Shown: positions 3,759 through 19,050 of the stretch, one piece after another
How positions within the stretch are numbered: position 1 is the first letter of the stretch
Layout: every line of letters begins with the position of its first letter
From: a virus
Taxonomy: Duplodnaviria > Heunggongvirae > Uroviricota > Caudoviricetes
Reading direction: 5' to 3' (one strand)
DNA length: 21,412 nucleotides
IMG/VR virus record: IMGVR_UViG_2740892117_000010
Location: 1 to 21,412 of that record
Position numbers and translations under genes: made by a program
The notes under the pieces: generated by a model
What the model was told of the DNA's origin: nothing
The model's input: the letters and a program-made list of their open reading frames with translations, nothing else
The model's database searches: none

Positions 3759-4811
3759 TTATTTCCCCACCAGCTCATTTATCTCTTTCACTGTCTGATT
3801 AAACCGCTCTGACTCAAGCTCAACACCTAAGGCCCGACGCCCCAGCGCCATTGCTGCTTTTATTGTGGAACCGGATCCCATAAAAAAATCAGCAACCAGA
3901 TCACCTGGTCGACTACTGGCATTGATTATTTGCCTGAGCATATCCGCCGGTTTCTCACACGGATGTTTCCCCGGGTAGAACTGAACGGGTTTATGCATCC
4001 AGACATCGGTATAAGGCACGGAGACTGATACGGAGAAATAGCGCCGGAGAGATTTAAACTCATCCAGCAATTCAGAATATTTACGATTCAGTGAATCATA
4101 AGATGCCACCAGCTGGTGGTGTGGTTGTTCCAGTTGTTGTTCCTGAAACTTCTCTGCCGCTATACGGGAAAACAGTGCCTGTAACTTCCGATAGTCAGCC
4201 TCATTCGGCAACTGCCACTGACTGGCACCAAACCAGTGGGAAACCATATTTTTCTTACCTGTGGCTTCGGCAATTTGTTTTGCCGTTATACCCAGTTCGG
4301 CACGAGCATCCCTGAAATACGATATCAGCGGTGCCATTATGTGCTGTTTGAGTTCCCTTTCTTTTGCTGCATAGCCGTCACTTTTGCCGCGATATGGCCC
4401 CTGGTAATGTTCAGCAAACAGAACGCGCTCTGTGGCAGGAAAATATGCGCGCAGACTTTCTTTATTACACCCATTCCAACGTCCGGACGGCTTCGCCCAG
4501 ATGATATGGTTAAGCACGTTGAAACGTTCACGCATCATGATCTCAATATCAGATGCCAGGCGATGCCCACAGAACAGGTAAAGGCTTCCGGCAGGTTTTA
4601 ACACCCGCCAGAACTGGGCCAGACAGTGGTCCAGCCACTTAAGGTAATCTTCGTCCCCTTTCCACTGATTGTCCCAGCCGTTGGGTTTCACCTTGAAGTA
4701 CGGCGGATCGGTAACAATCAGGTCAATGGAATCATCAGGCAGGGACTGAATAAAATGCAGGCAATCAGCGTTGATTAAATCAACACTGTTTATTTTTACA
4801 GTATTTTTCAT
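3759..4811 (-). CDS. DNA methyltransferase (N6-adenine/N4-cytosine class, DPPY motif), orphan
   Basis: Contains IVTDPPYF (motif IV) and a C-terminal FxGSGST-like AdoMet motif; no adjacent restriction endonuclease. Confidence 0.85.
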
Positions 4812-4961: not shown

Positions 4962-5189
4962 TTACTGGCAGCGTCTGAATTTATTCCCGTACCCGCCGTT
5001 ATCCTTCGCCAGACCCGCCAGAACTAACTGAGTCAGTATTAACTGGCACCGGGCTTCGCTTACTCCGGTAGTTCTCGTCATCATGCGTGGCGTTACCCAC
5101 TTGTCAGCAGGTAAGAAATGAAGGACTGCGGCGGCGGTTTCTGTCATATCTTGCTGTTTTAGCATGTCTTTTTCCCTTCTGGTTAACAT
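4962..5189 (-). CDS. Small hypothetical protein (75 aa; possible start at 5165), first ORF after the late terminator
   Basis: ORF with GAAGGG upstream of the second ATG; C-terminal half looks like a winged-helix segment; function unknown. Confidence 0.4.
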   Translation of the reverse strand: MLTRREKDMLKQQDMTETAAAVLHFLPADKWVTPRMMTRTTGVSEARCQLILTQLVLAGLAKDNGGYGNKFRRCQ

Positions 5190-5283
5190 GACATACCAAT
5201 AACTCTTGTCTAAAAATCCAGCAAGATAAAAAGTCAGTATTCACGACCACCAGCGTGTTTACTGTACTGCACCAAGTTTACAG

Positions 5284-5311
5284 GTACAAAAAACCCGCTC
5301 AGTGGCGGGTT
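5284..5311 (-). terminator. tR-prime-like intrinsic terminator downstream of the late promoter
   Basis: Minus strand reads AACCCGCCACTGAGCGGGTT followed by TTTTTTGT. Confidence 0.7.
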
Positions 5312-5357
5312 CTTAAATCTTATCAACGGTAGACATACAAAGCCCATCGTTGGGGAA

Positions 5358-5386
5358 ATCTTATCCATATTTTTTGAAAAATGCAA
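5358..5386 (-). promoter_or_regulatory. Late promoter (pR-prime-like), presumed Q-engagement region
   Basis: Minus strand TTGCAT - 17 nt - TAAGAT immediately downstream of the Q-like gene stop and about 45 nt upstream of the tR-prime-like hairpin. Confidence 0.6.
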
Positions 5387-5417
5387 GTATCATGTCGTCA
5401 TCTTCGGCGAAAATCAT

Positions 5418-6212
5418 TTATCTTGTCACTTTTCTCAATTGTGTCTCTGCATATGCTTCTTCCTGCCAGCACTTTGTAACCAGTTTATCAATGACATCTG
5501 CATATCCTTTGTACCACTGATAATCCGTCAGATCCGGTACCAGCTTCTGGACATGATGCCGCGCCAGTGTGGTTGGTAAACGGCTAAACCGGTTTCCATT
5601 GCAACGCCCACAAATCTTATAAACAGGCGTGCCATGAAGCCGGGTCCTTTTTTCATCCAGGACAATACCTTTACCCTTACACCCTCTGCACGCTGTGCTG
5701 ACTTCTCCCTTACCATGACAATGCTGACATAGTTCCTTCACCCACTCCTCCTTGATAACAGATTCACCGCTTCTGGAGTGTTTCACCACTTCGCGCAATA
5801 CATTATGAAATCCAGTACCTGCACAATGCTCACAGCGAGCCTTACTTGCCGCAGACCTGGAATAATCAGCAAAGGCAAAATTCACAAGGTAAGGGATGAT
5901 CTGTAACCGGGTTTCTTCACTCAATTTATTCAATGTCGGGTTATCCAGTGCCATCGCGTAATTGAGCAGACCTTCAATCGCAAACTGAGGATCCTGAACA
6001 CCAACTTTTGCCAGGAATAAGGCAAAACCCAGTGGTGCTTTCGACTGCACCATCCCCTGCGCAGCCATTACATCCGTAATTGTTAAACCACCAGAGCCTG
6101 TCGCCGGTGCGTCATCGCTCAATTTTGGAGATTTCGGGGAGTAATATTTCGGTAAGGCTTCAAGGTTCATGCTCGTTCTCCACTTACGCCAGCACGCCAA
6201 TTGCCAGCGCAC
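5418..6212 (-). CDS. Q: Late-gene antiterminator Q (phage-82 / QuuQ-like family)
   Basis: Position directly upstream of the late promoter and terminator; several CxxC zinc-binding pairs (CEHCAGTG, CQHCHGKG, CRGCKGKG, CGRCNG). Start may be the internal ATG at 6170. Confidence 0.7.
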   Translation of the reverse strand: MRWQLACWRKWRTSMNLEALPKYYSPKSPKLSDDAPATGSGGLTITDVMAAQGMVQSKAPLGFALFLAKVGVQDPQFAIEGLLNYAMALDNPTLNKLSEETRLQIIPYLVNFAFADYSRSAASKARCEHCAGTGFHNVLREVVKHSRSGESVIKEEWVKELCQHCHGKGEVSTACRGCKGKGIVLDEKRTRLHGTPVYKICGRCNGNRFSRLPTTLARHHVQKLVPDLTDYQWYKGYADVIDKLVTKCWQEEAYAETQLRKVTR

Positions 6213-7179
6213 GATCGATAAAACGAAATATCAGCTCCAGCTGGGAGCCATACTTCTCTTCAAATGCCACGGTATCCGCATGCAGCTCGTCGTGATGCTT
6301 TCTGCACAAAGGCAACACAAAAAGGTCATGCGCTTTTGTTCCCATTCCACCCTGACCGTGACCTATCAGGTGGTGGGGATCATCAGCGGGCTTTCCACAA
6401 CATGCACACGGCTGTGTCTTAACCCAGCGCGTGTACTTTTCATTAACCCAGCGGCGACGTTTTGGGCGTAACATAAAAGACTCCGGCGACTCCGGATCCA
6501 CTTTCAGCGCCAGCACCTTTTTCGCCTTATCCTGGATGATGCTGGTGGCAGGAACCGAAGGCACAAGGTCACTTTCCCGGGTAACAGACGGCACAACAGG
6601 CTTCGGTAATCTCAGTGCCTTACGGGCTGCACTTTCCGGTAAGGCATCCGCCAGATCATTACGAATCAGCCACCAGCACAGTTCCGGCATTGTCACAACG
6701 TGACTGTCATCAAAACCGAGATCCCGACGCACAACAGACAACACCCAGCGGGCACAGTTATCCGTTGCCATTGATTCCAGCCGTTCCGTGAACTGATCGC
6801 GCAGCTGGTTATCGCAGTGCCAGCACAGACGGATTGCACCCGGAGCGTGTCGCATTGTGGTCATGTTCTCGCTGTGCCAGTCGGAATGAGGCCACTGGCA
6901 GCCTTTTTCACGAAGTAACCAGCTTTCAAGACATTCCACGCCACCAGCACGACGGATCACTGCCTCATTGCGGAACACGGCCCGAACGGCAGGATCATCC
7001 GCCAGCGGTTGTGATGCCGCCGGAACGGCACCACTGGCGAAAGATGAATAACGCTCCGGCTCAGGCTCCAGCAGGACACGCCCCTGCATAAACAGGGGCA
7101 TCAGCTCTGAACCTGGCCTGAACAATACGATCCCCATACGCGGGGCAATTTCAGGGGTCAGTAGTGCTCTCACGGTCAC
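6184..7179 (-). CDS. DUF968 / YdfU-like protein with C-terminal HNH-like motif
   Basis: C-terminal CACCGKPADDPHHLIGHGQGG...CRKHHDELH resembles an HNH/zinc-finger nuclease motif; lies upstream of Q as ydfU does in the Qin prophage (from memory). Confidence 0.65.
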   Translation of the reverse strand: MTVRALLTPEIAPRMGIVLFRPGSELMPLFMQGRVLLEPEPERYSSFASGAVPAASQPLADDPAVRAVFRNEAVIRRAGGVECLESWLLREKGCQWPHSDWHSENMTTMRHAPGAIRLCWHCDNQLRDQFTERLESMATDNCARWVLSVVRRDLGFDDSHVVTMPELCWWLIRNDLADALPESAARKALRLPKPVVPSVTRESDLVPSVPATSIIQDKAKKVLALKVDPESPESFMLRPKRRRWVNEKYTRWVKTQPCACCGKPADDPHHLIGHGQGGMGTKAHDLFVLPLCRKHHDELHADTVAFEEKYGSQLELIFRFIDRALAIGVLA

Positions 7180-7180
7180 C

Positions 7181-7978
7181 TCAATGAACGGTATCGAGCA
7201 GCTTTAACAGCTCAGGGAATCGGGATTCGAAGAAATGCGGCTGCGTCTCGCGCGGATTTGCGGGACTGGTGATGTTCTTGCCGAACATGCAGCCTTTCGC
7301 TGTCAGCGACCAGAATTTTTTGATGTTGTTAATCGCGGTACGGCTGTATCGTTCGCGCTGCTCGACGATCCCCAGCTTCACCATCTGGTGATATGCCTGA
7401 TTAGCTGTCAGGCGGATACCATACTGCTTCAGCAGTGCACTCAGTGACAGCGTGGGGCGGCTTGAGCCATCAGGCGCGTCAGCAGGAGCATCAATGGCAT
7501 AGCGCGGTGCCAGATTCGGTAAGCCAACAGCCTCCTGGAGTTTCTGACAGGCACCAAGCACTGAAGAGTTAGACAGGTTTAATTCCCGGCGCATAAAGTC
7601 CAGCAGAATCACACCAGCCTGCATCTTGTCAGCAGCCTGTCCGGATAATTTTTCCGGTGCGCTGGTTACCATGTCGAAAGTACGGATCACCTTCAGATGG
7701 AATGACGGGCTGATCCACATTGCATAGGCATACACCAGTTCTTTGCAGACATACGTCCCCTGGTTATTTCCGCCACGAATAACGTTAACTGGCTCTATAT
7801 TGACCGAGTTGCAAATCTGCAACTCGCTTATTAAACGTTCAGTTTGCTCATTGCGGAGCCAGAATGCAGGCTTATGCTTATCCAGAGAACCGGCAGCCCT
7901 GTGCAGATCGTTCAGGCTGTAACGACCATAAGCATCACGACGAACTTCAATACCATCAATGACCATCAGATTATTCAT
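7181..7978 (-). CDS. KilA-N domain protein
   Basis: N-terminal IDGIEVRRDAYGRYSLNDLHRAAG...KPAFWLRNEQTERLISEL is characteristic of the KilA-N DNA-binding domain. Confidence 0.7.
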   Translation of the reverse strand: MNNLMVIDGIEVRRDAYGRYSLNDLHRAAGSLDKHKPAFWLRNEQTERLISELQICNSVNIEPVNVIRGGNNQGTYVCKELVYAYAMWISPSFHLKVIRTFDMVTSAPEKLSGQAADKMQAGVILLDFMRRELNLSNSSVLGACQKLQEAVGLPNLAPRYAIDAPADAPDGSSRPTLSLSALLKQYGIRLTANQAYHQMVKLGIVEQRERYSRTAINNIKKFWSLTAKGCMFGKNITSPANPRETQPHFFESRFPELLKLLDTVH

Positions 7979-7997
7979 ACTTCGTTTCTCCTCTTAA

Positions 7998-8387
7998 TCA
8001 GGCGGCTGCACCCGCCGGTTTCTCATACTTACTGATAGTGATCTCGACCTTCCCTTTCGGGATAACCGGTCCCCACTCCACCAGCATTCTTTTCACCTGA
8101 CTGTCGTCTTCCCACACCCCCGCGTGGGTCAGGGCGTCAAACAGCGCCTTGTTATAGTTGTCCAGATCGCGGATCCGGTTATCCGGAGGAAACAACACGA
8201 TCTCCACTGAAGCAGGTGCCGACGTTGGTTTCGGCAGGCGACGTAACTGCTCAACTATTGCTGCGCACGCCGCGCTCTGGAATTTGCGCCCCGCTGCGCT
8301 TATCAGACTCTTACCAGCAAACGCCCCTTTGTTGGGGTGTCGCCAGTACGTGTTCACGCTGGGCGGAAAAGGCAGGATCAGCTTCAT
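7998..8387 (-). CDS. rusA: Holliday junction resolvase RusA
   Basis: Conserved RusA signature (PPSVNTYWRH..., DLDNYNKALFDALTHAGVWEDDSQV). Confidence 0.9.
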   Translation of the reverse strand: MKLILPFPPSVNTYWRHPNKGAFAGKSLISAAGRKFQSAACAAIVEQLRRLPKPTSAPASVEIVLFPPDNRIRDLDNYNKALFDALTHAGVWEDDSQVKRMLVEWGPVIPKGKVEITISKYEKPAGAAA

Positions 8388-8710
8388 ACTTTCAGGCCCC
8401 TCTCATGTAACCAGTGGGCTGCACGCAGCCTGGCGTTTTCCTCACCGGCAAGCAGTGCGCGGATAATCCCGACCGCCTCGCTGTCGTCGTCCTTCACAGC
8501 GGTATGAAGCGTTATCCCCCGTGCCACGCCACGCTTTATCGTGATGACGCCTTTTTTCTCCAGTGCGCGAAGATGCTCCACCGCTGCATTCACCGAACGG
8601 TATCCCAGCATGGTTGCCACCTCCTGATTGGTTGGCGGAAAGCCACGCTCTTTCTGGTAAGAAATCAGCATATCCAGCACCTGCTGCTGGCATTGAGTTA
8701 ACGTCGTCAT
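8384..8710 (-). CDS. LexA N-terminal DNA-binding-domain protein (no peptidase domain)
   Basis: LTQCQQQVLDMLISYQKERGFPPTNQEVATMLGYRSVNAAVEHLRALEKKGVI parallels the LexA N-terminal wHTH as remembered; 108 aa, lacking an S24 domain. Confidence 0.75.
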   Translation of the reverse strand: MTTLTQCQQQVLDMLISYQKERGFPPTNQEVATMLGYRSVNAAVEHLRALEKKGVITIKRGVARGITLHTAVKDDDSEAVGIIRALLAGEENARLRAAHWLHERGLKV

Positions 8711-9360
8711 GCCGCCATCTCCCTGACCAGTTTTTCCGCCTGCTGGCGAACCTGCACCAGAAAGGCTTCACCACATGCCTCAAGTTCATCGCGCCCGATG
8801 TAGCTGATTGCCGGTCCCTTCCAGGTCTTGTCGAAAACAGCAATAGCACCAGCGAAGAAAGCGCCTGTCGGCACCTGCTTCTCATCCTTCGGGATAAACC
8901 AGGCAGGCAGTTCAAAACCAATACGCCCGCGAATAAAAGCAATATGGTCCGCATCTTCCGGCCACCACACTTCGCTGGTGGCAGCTTTGATCAGGAAAAC
9001 ATAGCGCCCGCCCTTATCACGCATGGCACTGGCATGTTTCATGATGTAACGCATGCCGGTGATGTATTGTCCCTCATGCTGACTGGCGCGGCTGTATGGG
9101 GGATTACCAAAGGCAGCACCTTTAAGCTCCGCAAGACGTTCTGACCAGTCATGCGCCAGCGCGTTATCTTCCGCCGTGTAATACGCGGCACATTTGGCGT
9201 TATCACCGTCAGTAAACAGATCCAGAACAAACGGGCCAAACAGGGTGTTAATTCCCCAGAAAATGTTGTCCGGCGTGCGCCACTGATCGCCCACTTCCTT
9301 CAGTTCATGGGCTGGTTTGTTCCGCAGTTCCACCAGCGCCTGGCAATATTTATTACTCAT
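8707..9360 (-). CDS. Phage Dam-like N6-adenine DNA methyltransferase, orphan
   Basis: Contains GNPPYS motif; ATG at 9360 overlaps the upstream stop (TAATG). The ORF-track start at 9393 is a likely extension. Confidence 0.8.
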   Translation of the reverse strand: MSNKYCQALVELRNKPAHELKEVGDQWRTPDNIFWGINTLFGPFVLDLFTDGDNAKCAAYYTAEDNALAHDWSERLAELKGAAFGNPPYSRASQHEGQYITGMRYIMKHASAMRDKGGRYVFLIKAATSEVWWPEDADHIAFIRGRIGFELPAWFIPKDEKQVPTGAFFAGAIAVFDKTWKGPAISYIGRDELEACGEAFLVQVRQQAEKLVREMAA

Positions 9361-9854
9361 TAAGCCCCCACGTAATTCCCTGACAGATACCACTCTTCAC
9401 CCGATGCAGCGCGCTTGCTGCTTTTCCGTAAACACCGCTCACGACGCGCAAGAAAATTGTTTCGCTCTTGCTGGGAGTGGCTTTCACGGAATGCCGCCAT
9501 CCACACCGTTGCAGCACGACGGTATAAGCCCCTGGACTCCAGTTCTTCCGCCTGGCGGGTCAGGCATAAAATCACCCGGGGATCGTTAGTGCCGACATAG
9601 AAATTGCGCACAGATCTGGTTTCTCGAACTGGTTGTGGTTCCGGTTCCTGCGCTCTCTCAGTCAGGCGCGGAAAATGTCTGCGTGTATCTCCTTCACAAC
9701 GGTGAGCCACACGCCCACTCTGACGTAACTTGCTTGCAGACTGCAGAACGCGCTGCCGTGAGTAACCTGCAAAAGCATCCGCAATGTCTCCGGAAGTACA
9801 CCCCGGATGGGCTTCAATGAATTTCTGAACGTCATTCAAAAGACTCATGATCAC
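9360..9854 (-). CDS. PerC-like transcriptional regulator (putative)
   Basis: C-terminal GLYRRAATVWMAAF resembles the PerC-family motif; N-terminal half looks wHTH-like; start overlaps the O stop (ATGA). Confidence 0.5.
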   Translation of the reverse strand: MIMSLLNDVQKFIEAHPGCTSGDIADAFAGYSRQRVLQSASKLRQSGRVAHRCEGDTRRHFPRLTERAQEPEPQPVRETRSVRNFYVGTNDPRVILCLTRQAEELESRGLYRRAATVWMAAFRESHSQQERNNFLARRERCLRKSSKRAASGEEWYLSGNYVGA

Positions 9855-10792
9855 CCCCTGAATCCTGCCGGGATCTGGCTGTAGTCCACGTTGTCGTAAC
9901 TGGATTTGAAGTACGGGTCTTCGCGTTTTTCGGTGTACGTGCTGACGGACGGCGATAAGCGCAGGGAAAGCTCATCCCATTTTTCCCGCAACTTCGACGG
10001 GCTGAGCACGTTACGGCACCAGAACGGATCGCGGCTGACGCGGCTGTACATCTCGCAGATTTGTTTGTGAGTACGACCATCCTGCACACACATCAGGCGA
10101 ATTTCGTTTGCCCAGGCTGTCCAGTTCGGTTCTTTGGGACGAACCACCTCGCCGTCACATTCGGCGGCTTGCTCGTACAGGGCGATGATTTTTTTCCAGA
10201 GCCACTGTGCGCAGGTCAAATCATCCTGCGTTCCCCACTGGCGCTTTTTAGGGCTGAATACAACCGCATCAGGATGGCGAGTTAAAAAATCCTGTTCATC
10301 CGTCTGCGTGTCCGGTTGCGAAGCGTCCGGACGAGAAGGTTTTTTATCTGACGGATCATGTTTTGATTTTACTGACGGATCCCCGCCAGATTCTGACGGG
10401 TGAAAACCCGCTTTTTTGCCAGATTTCGACGCATCAAATTTTGACGGGTCAGATTTTGATGCGTCAGATTTTGACTGGTCAGAATCTGACAGTTGAGAAA
10501 ATGCCGCTGCCTGAAGCTTCGCAACGTTAAGCTGATAAACATTCGACGCATTGCGGTTACCCTGGCGACGCGCCTTACGCGTTAACCAGCCTTCTGCTTC
10601 CAGCCGTGCGATAGCCGTTCTGACGGTACTCATCCCCGCGCCAATCTGACGGGCAATGGTTTCAATTGATGGCCAGCACACACCTTCGTCATTACTGAAA
10701 TCAGCCAGGCGGGCCATAATTGCCACGCTGGATAATTTCATGCCTGATGCAGCGCAACCATCCCATACATAGCCGGTTAATTTAGTGCTCAT
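9851..10792 (-). CDS. Replication initiator, O-like (N-terminal HTH, Ser/Lys/Asp-rich linker encoded by ori iterons)
   Basis: N-terminal wHTH typical of phage replication initiators; ATG at 10792 with GAGG Shine-Dalgarno; iterons within the coding sequence as in lambda O. Confidence 0.8.
   Translation of the reverse strand: MSTKLTGYVWDGCAASGMKLSSVAIMARLADFSNDEGVCWPSIETIARQIGAGMSTVRTAIARLEAEGWLTRKARRQGNRNASNVYQLNVAKLQAAAFSQLSDSDQSKSDASKSDPSKFDASKSGKKAGFHPSESGGDPSVKSKHDPSDKKPSRPDASQPDTQTDEQDFLTRHPDAVVFSPKKRQWGTQDDLTCAQWLWKKIIALYEQAAECDGEVVRPKEPNWTAWANEIRLMCVQDGRTHKQICEMYSRVSRDPFWCRNVLSPSKLREKWDELSLRLSPSVSTYTEKREDPYFKSSYDNVDYSQIPAGFRG
10350..10495. repeat. Origin iterons (about 7 copies of a 12-bp unit, tCAGATTTTGAC-like) inside the O-like gene
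   Basis: Direct repeats ccagattctgac, ccagatttcgac, tcaaattttgac, tcagattttgat, tcagattttgac, tcagaatctgac at roughly 15-bp spacing. Confidence 0.8.
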
Positions 10793-10801
10793 GACCGACC
10801 T

Positions 10802-11140
10802 CTACTTCCCTGAATTTACGACGAAACTGTTCGAGCGGGCTGAAGCACTCATGCTCATAGCCTTCGCGGAGGTAGATAACCCGTTGTGTTTCCGGCTCCC
10901 AACGAATGACTCTGACGGGCACTCCGTAGTGATCTTTGAACCAGCGGTTAACTTGTCGCAAAGGACTGTCTCCTTCTGCCGGTTGAAATCACCCACAGCC
11001 CACTCTGCAAAGCTGTGGGTTACAATTTCCCTGTCACCTGGTACATTTACTGCATAGCAATACTCCACCTTCGCTTTTCCACCCGGTACAGGAAGTGCAA
11101 TCAGTTGCGAGCGACGGTAGTGTGTTGTTAAACTGTTCAT
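10802..11140 (-). CDS. Small hypothetical protein between the cII-position gene and O; frame uncertain in its 3' half
   Basis: ATG at 11140 overlaps the upstream stop (ATGA). The C-terminal half is Ser-rich and low-complexity, while an alternative frame over 10795-10990 reads protein-like ([52 protein letters not shown]). Confidence 0.35.
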
Positions 11141-11706
11141 GCGTTAGTTTCTCCACAACCAGAAGCAATCGACGCCACGACGCCCGGAGCTGCACACTCG
11201 CGGGCGTCATTACTTTCTGAAATGCAAAAAATTTTGTAGACAAGTGCTGCATGCTCCTGCAGCTTCGAAATTGAGAGATACAGCTCGTCGTTAATTGCTG
11301 TCTTCTCATGCGGTTCCACTACACCGTCTTCGATTGCTGAACGAATCTGTTTTGAATAACTGCCGATCTGTTCAATGACTTCCAGCAGACGCTGGTTAAT
11401 ATCGGCGTTGTCCACATCCTCGACGTCAGGAAGAGACACAAAGACGCCATTTGCAGACTGCGCCACAGCATCAGCAATGAAGTGAGTTCCACCAGCACGT
11501 TGCAAAATCATTGCCCATCCCAGCGGGAAAATCTGATCGCCATCAGCACGAAGGCGGTTAAATAATGCGTTCTCTGTTACATCCAGCCAGTCAGCTGCTT
11601 CAGCGTAACCACCCGGCAACTTTGCGATAGTTTTTCTGACAGCTTTCACGTACCACTCAGGCTGTTTTTCTACTTTCCAGTGATGCTTACCCACGGTTAG
11701 CCTCAT
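11137..11706 (-). CDS. Hypothetical early-operon protein at the cII position (start uncertain: 11706, 11748, 11760 or 11808)
   Basis: ORF immediately downstream of cro on the pR-side operon; no motif I can assign; a GTG with GAGG Shine-Dalgarno lies just after the first in-frame candidate. Confidence 0.5.
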
Positions 11707-11731: not shown

Positions 11732-11932
11732 TTATCCATTAGATTTTTCATAAAGCTCAGGTTTAAATGGCAACCGTCCGCAAGTTCTATATGCAGCTTC
11801 TGCTGCACGTCCTTTTGGAATTAACTGGCCCGGACGGTTTCGCCACTGATAAACGGCTTCAGTTGTTATGCCGAAAAAAGCAGCAACTTTCTCAATACTG
11901 CCGAAGTAGCTTTCGATATCGTCAGTTGTCAT
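11732..11932 (-). CDS. cro: Cro-like HTH repressor
   Basis: 66-aa HTH protein divergently transcribed from cI; FFGITTEAVYQWRNRPGQLIP is HTH-like. Confidence 0.75.
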   Translation of the reverse strand: MTTDDIESYFGSIEKVAAFFGITTEAVYQWRNRPGQLIPKGRAAEAAYRTCGRLPFKPELYEKSNG

Positions 11933-12029
11933 ACGCCCTCCAAACTAAGTTTTATTAGATGCTAATTACAAATCTATCTTTGGTCAATAAAAACTAAGAT
12001 TACTTAGCAATTCAAGAAATGGTGCTCCT
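11933..12029. promoter_or_regulatory. Right operator region (pR / pRM with operator half-sites)
   Basis: Divergent cI-cro intergenic region with AACTAAG motifs at 11944 and 11992 and the inverted pair ACTAAGATTACTTAG. Confidence 0.55.
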
Positions 12030-12656
12030 ATGGAAACGGTTGGTCAGCGTATAAAAGCTCTGAGAAGAGTTACCAGAACGTCCCAGAAAGAATTGGGTAA
12101 ATTTTGTGGAGTAAGCGACGTTGCTGTGGGGTACTGGGAGAAAGACATCAATACCCCTGGTGGGGAGGCACTTTCGAAATTAGCGAAGTTCTTCAATACG
12201 TCAATAGATTACATTCTTTATGGTGCTGAGTTTGAAGGCAAACTCGTCACAAACATGCGCAGAGTTCCTGTAATATCGTGGGTTCAGGCTGGGCAGTTTA
12301 CTGAGTGCAGGGCAGCAGAAGTGTTTAGTGAAGTGGACAAGTGGGTAGATACATCATTAAAGATTGGTGATAACTCATTTGCATTAGAGGTTAAAGGTGA
12401 CTCCATGACTAACCCTAATGGCCTCCCAACAATACCAGAAGGCGCAACAGTGATTGTAGATCCAGATGCAGAACCTCGTCATGGAAAAATAGTCATCGCT
12501 CGACTTGATGGAACAAACGAAGCTACAGTAAAAAAATTAGTCATCGATGGCCCTCAAAAGTTTTTAGTGCCATTAAATCCTCGGTATCCCAACATCCCTA
12601 TCAATGGTAATTGCCTTATCATTGGTGTAGTCAAAGGAGTTCAATACGAACTCTAA
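12030..12656 (+). CDS. cI: CI-type prophage repressor (HTH-XRE N-terminal domain + LexA-like S24 peptidase domain)
   Basis: N-terminal HTH (QKELGKFCGVSDVAVGYWEKD); C-terminal S24 signatures (KGDSM serine motif, catalytic Lys region VKKLV). Confidence 0.9.
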   Translation: METVGQRIKALRRVTRTSQKELGKFCGVSDVAVGYWEKDINTPGGEALSKLAKFFNTSIDYILYGAEFEGKLVTNMRRVPVISWVQAGQFTECRAAEVFSEVDKWVDTSLKIGDNSFALEVKGDSMTNPNGLPTIPEGATVIVDPDAEPRHGKIVIARLDGTNEATVKKLVIDGPQKFLVPLNPRYPNIPINGNCLIIGVVKGVQYEL

Positions 12657-17997: not shown

Positions 17998-18954
17998 TTA
18001 TTTACCCTTATTATACTCTTCAGTAATCTTATTCATGGATGATATATATTTATCCAGCCCACCATAGTTGGCTATCATTCGAAATGAATTACGGTACTCT
18101 GCCATTTTCACATCATGATTAGTAATTCCACACCAGCCACAAACTTTATTTTCCATGTTTAAAGGCTCATAACATTTTTTACATTGCCTTGATGCAGGTA
18201 TTATATTGCCATTAATAAATTGGTGTGATTTGAGATTTTGAGATAAAAGAAATGGTGTAGTTGTTGTTTTTCCTATTACCATTTCGAAATATCTACATTT
18301 AGCCTTTTTAGCTAAAGATTGAATTTTCTGCTTTAATAAATCATTTGATTTGTGCCCAACTATAACTCCAGTTATACAATTAATCGGTACCGGAAGGAGC
18401 ATAAGATTGTCATTCAGTTTAGTAAGTGCTTTCTCATTAATTATTACGCGACGTTCCTGCTCATAACTCCAGCAAGTTTGTTTTGTCAAATATGCGGCTG
18501 TCATTATACAGGATTGTAGCCAGTAGATATAACGAGGTTTACAGATATGAAATGCTCTCGCCAGAATGTCTTCAATACCTGTATCTGGAGAATCTTTATA
18601 TTCAACATCTGCTATTGAACTATGATCCTGGAAGCCGATTTCATCCAAATACTTTTTAAACTTCTCCTCATTAATCTCTATTACAAAACCAGAAGAATTA
18701 CCTGCATAATGTGCCCACATAGGTGGTATCACAGGGCTTTTCGTAAAACAAGTTGCTGGTTGTTTTGTAACCATGCCAATCATTTCATTGTAAAATGCTA
18801 ACTCATCAGAACCGCGATTAAAATCAATAGTAAGGAAAAACTCATAGGGATCATTATATTCATGTAAATGAGAGAATTTTATTCCTATATGTGTTTCATC
18901 CATCATCAATTTATCAATTATATCCGCTCCCATAAACTTATACAAATTGGTCAT
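17998..18954 (-). CDS. DUF2971-like protein with C-terminal CxxC...CxxC zinc ribbon; AT-rich cargo gene
   Basis: ATG at 18954 with AAGGAG Shine-Dalgarno; N-terminal NLYKF...FSHLHEYNDPYEF resembles the DUF2971 signature as remembered; C-terminal CKKCYEPLNMENKVCGWCG; markedly AT-rich versus flanks. Confidence 0.6.
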   Translation of the reverse strand: MTNLYKFMGADIIDKLMMDETHIGIKFSHLHEYNDPYEFFLTIDFNRGSDELAFYNEMIGMVTKQPATCFTKSPVIPPMWAHYAGNSSGFVIEINEEKFKKYLDEIGFQDHSSIADVEYKDSPDTGIEDILARAFHICKPRYIYWLQSCIMTAAYLTKQTCWSYEQERRVIINEKALTKLNDNLMLLPVPINCITGVIVGHKSNDLLKQKIQSLAKKAKCRYFEMVIGKTTTTPFLLSQNLKSHQFINGNIIPASRQCKKCYEPLNMENKVCGWCGITNHDVKMAEYRNSFRMIANYGGLDKYISSMNKITEEYNKGK

Positions 18955-19050
18955 ATACAACTCCTTTTTTATAAAATAACATTTTAAATCATATGATTAT
19001 GGAGGCACAAAATCCAGTAATTAGTTTTCAAGCCGGTTGTGATGTAGTTC

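Follow-up and report, generated by a model that had tools for sequence, protein, structure and literature searches.

Proteins that consist of a LexA-type DNA-binding domain only have a described precedent among temperate phages. In the Bacillus phage GIL01, the early-expressed gp6 is a homologue of the LexA N-terminal domain, which activates the late promoter P3, adjoining host LexA sites, and recognises a site of its own. In Escherichia coli LexA the DNA-contacting residues are S39, N41, A42, E44 and E45 (PMC3091678). Of the PerC-family regulators, PchA, PchB and PchC activate ler, PchD is without effect on LEE1 and PchE has a small effect (<2-fold); the group 1 pch genes measure 315 bp. Among the PerC homologues of phage-inducible chromosomal islands (PICIs), one represses LEE1 and the others are without effect. 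For the phage Dam methylases of family PF05869, we take the enzymes of 933W and HP1 to be the members with tested specificity. Positions 8384-9854 (minus strand, 1471 bases) of a 21,412-nucleotide stretch of DNA from a tailed phage (Caudoviricetes; IMG/VR record IMGVR_UViG_2740892117_000010), called the window in the following, hold a gene of each of these kinds: a LexA N-terminal-domain protein of 108 residues, an orphan N6-adenine methyltransferase and the PerC-like protein YfdN. These three genes were analysed here.

The stretch is best explained as the accessory part of an early rightward (pR-type) operon in a lambdoid prophage of the SfV/mEp460/Stx2c type. We would give this reading, including the silence of the genes in the lysogen and the roles proposed below for their products, a probability of about 60%. 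The first-pass annotation had described a translationally coupled cluster of host-regulation cargo in a nin-like region. Coupling and region were borne out: the three open reading frames (ORFs) do lie on the minus strand at 8384-9854, between the genes for the replication initiator (9851-10792) and the Q-like antiterminator (5418-6170), and stop and start codons overlap at the junctions. The label of cargo was not supported, given the overlap with the O-like gene, the lack of a promoter or terminator of their own in our scan, a G+C content like that of the neighbours and a gene order that is fixed across genera. The O-like gene and yfdN share a 4-nt GTGA overlap (an alternative YfdN ATG lies 2 nt past the O stop), yfdN and the methylase gene overlap by 1 nt (TAATG), and the methylase/LexA-like and LexA-like/rusA junctions each have a 4-nt overlap (ATGA). 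A consensus scan, which is weak negative evidence, revealed no minus-strand sigma-70-like promoter between the pR region (~11959-11987) and the RusA/KilA-N junction (~7970-7997), and no minus-strand terminator-like site from 11184 to 6755. Over 8001-10000 the G+C fraction is 0.53-0.58, and in the early genes on either side it is 0.51-0.56; the composition is thus continuous with the neighbours. Ratios of nonsynonymous to synonymous substitution were 0.10 for the LexA-like gene, 0.05 for the methylase gene and 0.25 for yfdN, with 0.09 for rusA and 0.12 for the O-like gene. The three genes are intact and under purifying selection, and translational coupling links them with the O-like gene on the upstream side and with rusA on the downstream side. 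The overlaps, the missing promoter and terminator, the composition and the fixed order argue for expression together with the early lytic genes after loss of the repressor, and not in the lysogen. The features of the locus are as follows.

9360-9854, minus strand: YfdN (yfdN in RefSeq), 164 residues, with a match to the PerC profile
8707-9360, minus strand: orphan phage N6-adenine methyltransferase of the 'Dam' family PF05869, 217 residues, matching PF05869 and TIGR01712
8384-8710, minus strand: LexA N-terminal-domain protein with a C-terminal alpha-hairpin and without a peptidase domain, 108 residues, matching LexA_DNA_bind
12030-12656, plus strand: CI-type repressor with an S24 peptidase domain, which controls the operon (RefSeq 'LexA family protein'); the integrase lies further right
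11732-11932, minus strand: Cro-like gene, start of the uninterrupted run and divergent from the CI-type repressor gene
11137-11694, minus strand: YmfL/CII-like gene
10782-10961, minus strand: DUF4222 gene
9851-10792, minus strand: O-like replication initiator (Pfam HTH_36; PHROG 391 'replication initiation O-like', E 1.7e-135)
7998-8387, minus strand: RusA Holliday-junction resolvase (Pfam RusA)
7181-7978, minus strand: KilA-N domain protein (Pfam KilA-N, E 2.2e-26)
6184-7179, minus strand: DUF968/HNH-like protein (Pfam DUF968, E 3.5e-81)
5418-6170, minus strand: Q-like antiterminator, end of the early-right operon (RefSeq ydfT antitermination protein)
4962-5189, minus strand: small ORF between the Q/terminator region and the late methylase gene, 75 residues in the ORF list (4962-5165 in RefSeq)
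4784-4803: consensus LexA-type operator
3759-4811, minus strand: second, late-operon adenine methyltransferase of the M.EcoGI/GII family; lysis and packaging genes lie further downstream

An Rfam search of the window matched no RNA family. A small hypothetical ORF is also annotated at the position of 4962-5189 in phiP27, phiNP, 1720a-02 and Stx2_14040, by annotated position and not by sequence. Just past the integrase, at 17998-18960 on the minus strand, a stretch of 32-33% G+C encodes a DUF2971 protein that was assigned by PADLOC to the candidate defence family PDC-S31 (E 4e-22). If true prophage cargo is sought, this protein is a stronger candidate than the three genes at 8384-9854.

Several E. 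coli chromosomes, among them that of an O25b:H4-ST131 strain, contain the stretch with 100% identity. It matches 2681 of the 5426 complete E. coli genomes, and in 1610 a single place covers at least 80% of the query. Fifty phage records carry it at 96-98% nucleotide identity, among them SfV (orf42 and dam), SfII, SfIV, mEp460, cdtI, 1720a-02, Ayreon, Shiga toxin (Stx) 2c phages and Stx2a_1447. All three products already have names in RefSeq. The three genes are routine, already annotated early-operon genes of a very common E. coli/Shigella/Stx prophage family, and not a host-regulation island.

For gene order, 171 viral contigs were sampled via the LexA-like protein and two relatives of 45-50% identity, and 80 more via RusA. 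The same order recurred throughout this set and is fixed in 250 related viral contigs from several enterobacterial genera: O, YfdN, a methylase or nothing, the LexA-like gene, RusA, in some cases KilA-N, then DUF968 and Q. Of the 80 LexA-anchored loci from E. coli, 27 are without Dam. In the P0131-type subfamily, whose LexA-like protein is 45% identical and sits in the same slot, 67 of 80 loci have an unrelated MT-A70 methylase and a 75-residue ORF instead of Dam. Ten loci pass from O directly to the LexA-like gene, and in a further locus (L248), which is without an intact YfdN, Dam overlaps RusA directly. Since natural variants cleanly lose each gene, an obligate three-gene functional unit was rejected; each gene is a separate cassette that can be lost individually. 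All 170 LexA-anchored loci with hits have RusA as the next gene after the LexA-like gene, and the latter is almost always joined to the start of rusA. Conversely, it precedes RusA in 76 of the 80 RusA-anchored loci and is missing in the other 4. A specific dependency between the two was rejected as well, given these four loci and the RusA of K-12 DLP12, which has no LexA-like neighbour. The link between them is positional. The pattern is that of dispensable early-operon (nin-type) genes, not of morons.

The 108-residue protein (8384-8710) matched the Pfam family LexA_DNA_bind (PF01726) over the full 65-residue profile (E 2.9e-19) and nothing else; a Peptidase_S24 match was not found with Pfam, and the chain stops at residue 108. 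It had been described beforehand as a LexA N-terminal domain without peptidase, and this description stands. The same is true for the term non-cleavable: without the self-cleaving domain, the protein cannot be inactivated in the way LexA is. Against the LexA equivalog TIGR00498 it scored 70.5 bits (cut-off 110.95), over profile positions 1-91 only. Without a peptidase domain and with a score below the cut-off, the protein is not a LexA orthologue. Its identity to residues 1-70 of E. coli LexA is 44%. An AlphaFold (AF2) model from a 30-sequence alignment, with a mean predicted local distance difference test (pLDDT) of 83, has a winged helix-turn-helix at 6-68, a short linker of low confidence and helices at 75-88 and 93-103. 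The best structural match of this model is the LexA-operator complex 3JSO (root-mean-square deviation 1.0 Å over 68 residues, ~50% identity), in which the hairpin is unmatched. Four of the five contact residues are retained (S39, N41, A42 and E45), and E44 is replaced by V. Exhaustive and profile searches delineated a family of proteins of 105-135 residues with the same hairpin in Escherichia, Citrobacter, Salmonella, Cronobacter, Klebsiella, Enterobacter, Atlantibacter, Kosakonia and Raoultella. As judged from the model, a non-cleavable LexA mimic that binds DNA and dimerises is a plausible and reasonable reading. The 'AG' of LLAGEE, aligned near LexA 'VAAGEP' (Ala84-Gly85), is probably neither a retained cleavage site nor a decoy, and the idea was set aside: other family members do not keep the A-G pair, which is predicted to lie at the end of a helix, and the protein has no protease domain to cut it. 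Three proteins of the representative library, from metagenomes (P0133, P0134 and P0148), have two tandem LexA DNA-binding domains, again without a peptidase domain. Such proteins show a second way in which a non-cleavable, 'dimeric' binder of the LexA type can arise.

A single consensus LexA-type operator occurs in the window, TACTGTAAAAATAAACAGTG on the minus strand at 4784-4803, an exact CTGT-N8-ACAG with an AT-rich spacer and a possible target site. It falls within codons 3-9 of the late methylase gene (3759-4811), downstream of Q. When one mismatch was allowed, CTGT-N8-ACAG occurred 15 times in the window versus 6.9 expected (0 of 100 shuffles reached 15), and only 4784-4803 is operator-like. 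In homologues with 76-82% protein identity the operator is kept as (T/C)ACTGTAAAAATA(AA/TC)CAGT, in the form ...ATCCAGT..., and nearby codons change (L259, L261, L262, L178). The form ...ATCCAGT... is also an allowed LexA half-site. Host LexA probably reads this operator, and the phage protein could share it. The late methylase has 81% identity to the methylase of phage 1720a-02, an enzyme very similar to the non-specific M.EcoGII (PMC5778455); in the M.EcoGII paper LexA goes unmentioned. The operator may explain SOS-linked control of this toxic M.EcoGI/GII-family enzyme. Among the 171 loci, exact CTGT-N8-ACAG sites form two classes, one at the 5' end of the M.EcoGII-like gene and one inside some cI genes, and neither class is universal. 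The second class is a perfect SOS box (TACTGTTTTTATATACAGTA or ...ACATACAGTA) inside the gene for a cI-like S24 repressor, seen in L005 (3095-3114) and in 17 other E. coli loci among L004-L083. It is located in the linker between the helix-turn-helix and peptidase domains and is absent from the cI of the window. A recurrent phage-internal operator dedicated to the LexA-like protein was rejected for both classes, since they are not universal and phages lacking the LexA-like gene have the first class too.

The methylase (8707-9360) reached 155.7 bits against PF05869 (cut-off 28.1; E 1e-45) and 255.6 bits against TIGR01712 (cut-off 97), in agreement with its first description as a Dam-like methyltransferase. 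Its true start is the ATG at 9360, as in RefSeq; the 228-residue ORF that opens with GTG and ends at 9393 is spurious, a product of the mechanical listing of ORFs. The catalytic NPPY motif (residues 86-89) is invariant in an alignment with the Dam proteins of 933W and HP1. A restriction-enzyme partner was found neither among the adjoining genes (YfdN, LexA-like) nor among the Pfam and PADLOC hits, and the enzyme is thus an orphan. Protection against restriction, as proposed earlier, would be the standard reading of such a sequence. The MT-A70 enzyme that occupies the Dam slot in relatives is 79.7% identical to the enzyme of Cronobacter phiES15, which has been grouped as a homologue of an experimentally GATC-specific Serratia phage methylase (PMC7556043). 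By analogy, this slot replacement may lend indirect support to GATC specificity of the PF05869 enzyme. In Klebsiella/Enterobacter-type relatives such as L095, the Dam slot holds the MT-A70 methylase (5121-5780) together with the conserved 75-residue ORF (5777-6004), a pairing that recalls the methylase and small-partner holoenzyme described for an Stx prophage rRNA methylase. The prophage 'DNA methylase' of the Koudelka lab, which is really an rRNA methylase, was set aside as a model, being of the MT-A70 type (DPPW motif) and not PF05869; it is kept only as a caution on names. In E. coli lysogens, further prophage methylases that had been examined proved to be transcriptionally silent, and a change to the lysogen methylome is therefore not expected.

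YfdN (9360-9854) passed the Pfam PerC profile (PF06069) with 37.9 bits against a cut-off of 22.6, over residues 100-151 only, so that the term PerC-motif protein was correct. A match to the ANR family NF033650 was weak and below its cut-off. The AF2 model predicts a winged helix at 2-62 (pLDDT ~88), a disordered linker at 65-86 and helices over 92-150 (pLDDT ~92) that form a three-helix C-terminal domain. The N-terminal domain resembles winged helices of the ArsR/MarR/BlaI type (~2 Å over ~61 residues). For the Dam (PF05869) and YfdN families, no solved structure was found by sequence. The proposal that the PerC-like protein activates virulence genes was not supported: YfdN has an extra winged helix, and family members have no, small or opposite effects on LEE1. 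With effects as diverse as these, a role as virulence activator cannot be read from the family name. In the literature, functional work on yfdN or the LexA-like gene was limited to incidental mentions; K-12 yfdN was deleted in one study, as a precaution only.

Taken together, we propose the following course of events. In the lysogen the three genes would be silent, and their products would appear along with the replication proteins after cleavage of the CI-type repressor. The PF05869 enzyme would then methylate adenines in the phage DNA as it replicates, with GATC as the probable site. This would leave progeny DNA completely modified in cases where host Dam cannot keep up with replication, or where the next host restricts DNA that lacks methylation. 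The 108-residue protein is predicted to recognise CTGT-type LexA operators by a surface that has hardly changed from that of LexA, and its C-terminal alpha-hairpin would serve self-association. As it lacks a peptidase domain, RecA would not remove it, and in a lytic cycle triggered by SOS it could close LexA-controlled promoters again. Its targets might include SOS genes of the host, rival elements under LexA control and the operator at the start of the late M.EcoGII-like methylase gene. YfdN may be a two-domain DNA-binding protein that probably acts in phage or nucleoid-associated transcription, or in replication, and would not be a dedicated virulence activator.

Several points weigh against parts of this account. 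The isolated N-terminal domain of LexA binds weakly, and hairpin-mediated dimerisation is read from a model of the monomer only. Within the LexA-like family at large, the contacts at positions 42, 44 and 45 differ between subfamilies, so the whole family cannot share one operator or the specificity for the host SOS box. The operator at 4784-4803 is also present in phiP27, phiNP and Stx2_14040, phages without the LexA-like gene, and the 108-residue protein is therefore not required for it. For the methylase, GATC specificity is an extrapolation, since identity to the 933W and HP1 Dam proteins is only 26-31%; the GATC count in the early operon (34 observed versus 24.5 expected) indicates neither telling avoidance nor telling enrichment. 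A promoter-trap study reported urine-induced fragments in the homologous cluster of UTI89, so that some low-level expression outside full lytic growth is possible. Finally, the searchable literature yields no experiment on any of the three proteins.

The urine-induced UTI89 fragments also belong to the case for lysogenic-conversion cargo, according to which the three genes block SOS genes, activate virulence regulons via the PerC-like protein and change the host methylome. The family resemblances of the three proteins would fit such a role, as would the frequency of the genes in pathogenic lineages, including ST131 and the Stx phages. We consider it very improbable nonetheless: the genes have no promoter or terminator that we could find, their frames overlap a replication gene, their G+C content is undistinguished and they keep a fixed position in an early lytic operon across genera. 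Added to this are the architecture of YfdN, which is unlike PerC, the PchD and PICI homologues without LEE1 activation, the effect of less than 2-fold for PchE, the family member that represses, and the silence of other prophage methylases in lysogens. A different role for YfdN, as a replication accessory factor that works with the O-like initiator and stands in for lambda P instead of regulating transcription, is suggested by its position, since yfdN overlaps and directly follows the O-like gene. No helicase or helicase-loader gene was found between the O-like initiator and Q (5418-10792; ORFs, Pfam and RefSeq). Moreover, the last ~24 residues of the O-like protein (…DYSQIPAGFRG) are conserved where the rest is swapped for a different replication protein (L095 3704-4630). 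In a published screen, overexpression of a UTI89 fragment (L002, 4,997,073-4,999,597) led to filamentation; besides a small hypothetical gene, the O-like gene and YfdN2 it contains parts of two others, namely the 3' part of a Rha-family regulator gene and only the 5' end of Dam, and the effect was not mapped to a causal gene. Against an essential replication-linked role argue the loci without YfdN: about ten with the same O tail go straight to the LexA-like gene and RusA, and L248 is without an intact copy. The Pfam and PHROG matches of YfdN are, furthermore, to transcription regulators. We therefore regard the replication role as unlikely. The Eru replication-module paper was discarded as a guide, as it does not cover the module found here.

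The opposed readings of the LexA-like protein differ in the operator it would recognise. It might be a phage-specific transcription factor in the manner of GIL01 gp6, which has drifted to an operator of its own and activates or times phage promoters. The precedent of gp6 as activator of P3, the variable positions 42, 44 and 45 with V at position 44 here, and the LexA-type operator in the late operon of the phage are consistent with this. On the other hand, S39, N41, A42 and E45 are retained, and save for classical SOS boxes in some, no recurrent palindrome was found near the gene in the 171 loci. In lambdoid phages late transcription is already provided by Q, and gp6 itself has neither the hairpin nor detectable BLASTP similarity to the protein. 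This makes the drifted factor rather doubtful. In the furthest-reaching form of the mimic reading, the protein would be a RecA-proof LexA mimic, dimerised by its hairpin, which re-occupies LexA operators in SOS-triggered induction. It would shut down host SOS genes and LexA-controlled rivals (colicins, antirepressor-driven prophages) and gate the M.EcoGII-type gene. We put this forward tentatively, as a rather unlikely possibility, in distinction to the assignment of the stretch to the early operon.

The result mainly corrects the record on a supposed host-regulation cluster. What deserves an experiment is the LexA-domain-only protein, which is under purifying selection, has a hairpin conserved across Enterobacteriaceae and is present in thousands of clinical genomes. 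It is encoded in about half of the complete E. coli genomes and in Stx2c/Stx2a phages. If it should indeed bind SOS boxes irreversibly, this would bear on the induction of prophages and Shiga toxin driven by antibiotics via SOS, on the competition of co-resident prophages and on the control of non-specific adenine methylases. A RecA-proof mimic would amount to a second, phage-run layer of SOS control and to a hierarchy among co-resident mobile elements.

Compared with the described systems, the locus shows no difference of substance from SfV, mEp460, cdtI and 1720a-02, which have the same genes in the same order. In the K-12 prophage CPS-53, yfdO-yfdN-yfdM is retained, the methylase is truncated with most of the gene lost, and the LexA-like gene is gone. 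The methylase belongs to the same family as the 933W/VT2 and HP1 Dam proteins, with which its NPPY and the N-terminal W-TP and LD motifs align; it is likewise an orphan and has the same nin-region position as in 933W. It differs in identity (31% to 933W/VT2 Dam, 26% to HP1 Dam) and is ~40 residues longer, owing to insertions and a C-terminal extension. YfdN shares with PerC of enteropathogenic and Pch of enterohaemorrhagic E. coli a C-terminal part of ~50 residues that passes the PerC threshold. In contrast to the single-domain PerC and PchA-C of ~90-105 residues, it has 164 residues with an additional N-terminal winged helix and a disordered linker, and unlike PerC/Pch it is encoded in an early operon next to a replication gene. 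With E. coli LexA (1LEA, 3JSO), the 108-residue protein has in common the winged helix-turn-helix fold and the contacts S39, N41, A42 and E45. LexA, however, has an S24 peptidase/dimerisation domain with the catalytic Ser119/Lys156 dyad, where the phage protein has a conserved 35-residue alpha-hairpin, in addition to V at position 44. GIL01 gp6 is likewise the product of an early temperate-phage gene that encodes a LexA-type DNA-binding domain only, and the late region of GIL01 also has host-LexA operators. With 66 residues, gp6 is shorter and hairpin-less, and BLASTP of the 108-residue protein against it gave no alignment at E <= 100; the truncation is therefore independent. By analogy of function, gp6 would be the closest precedent for the 108-residue protein.

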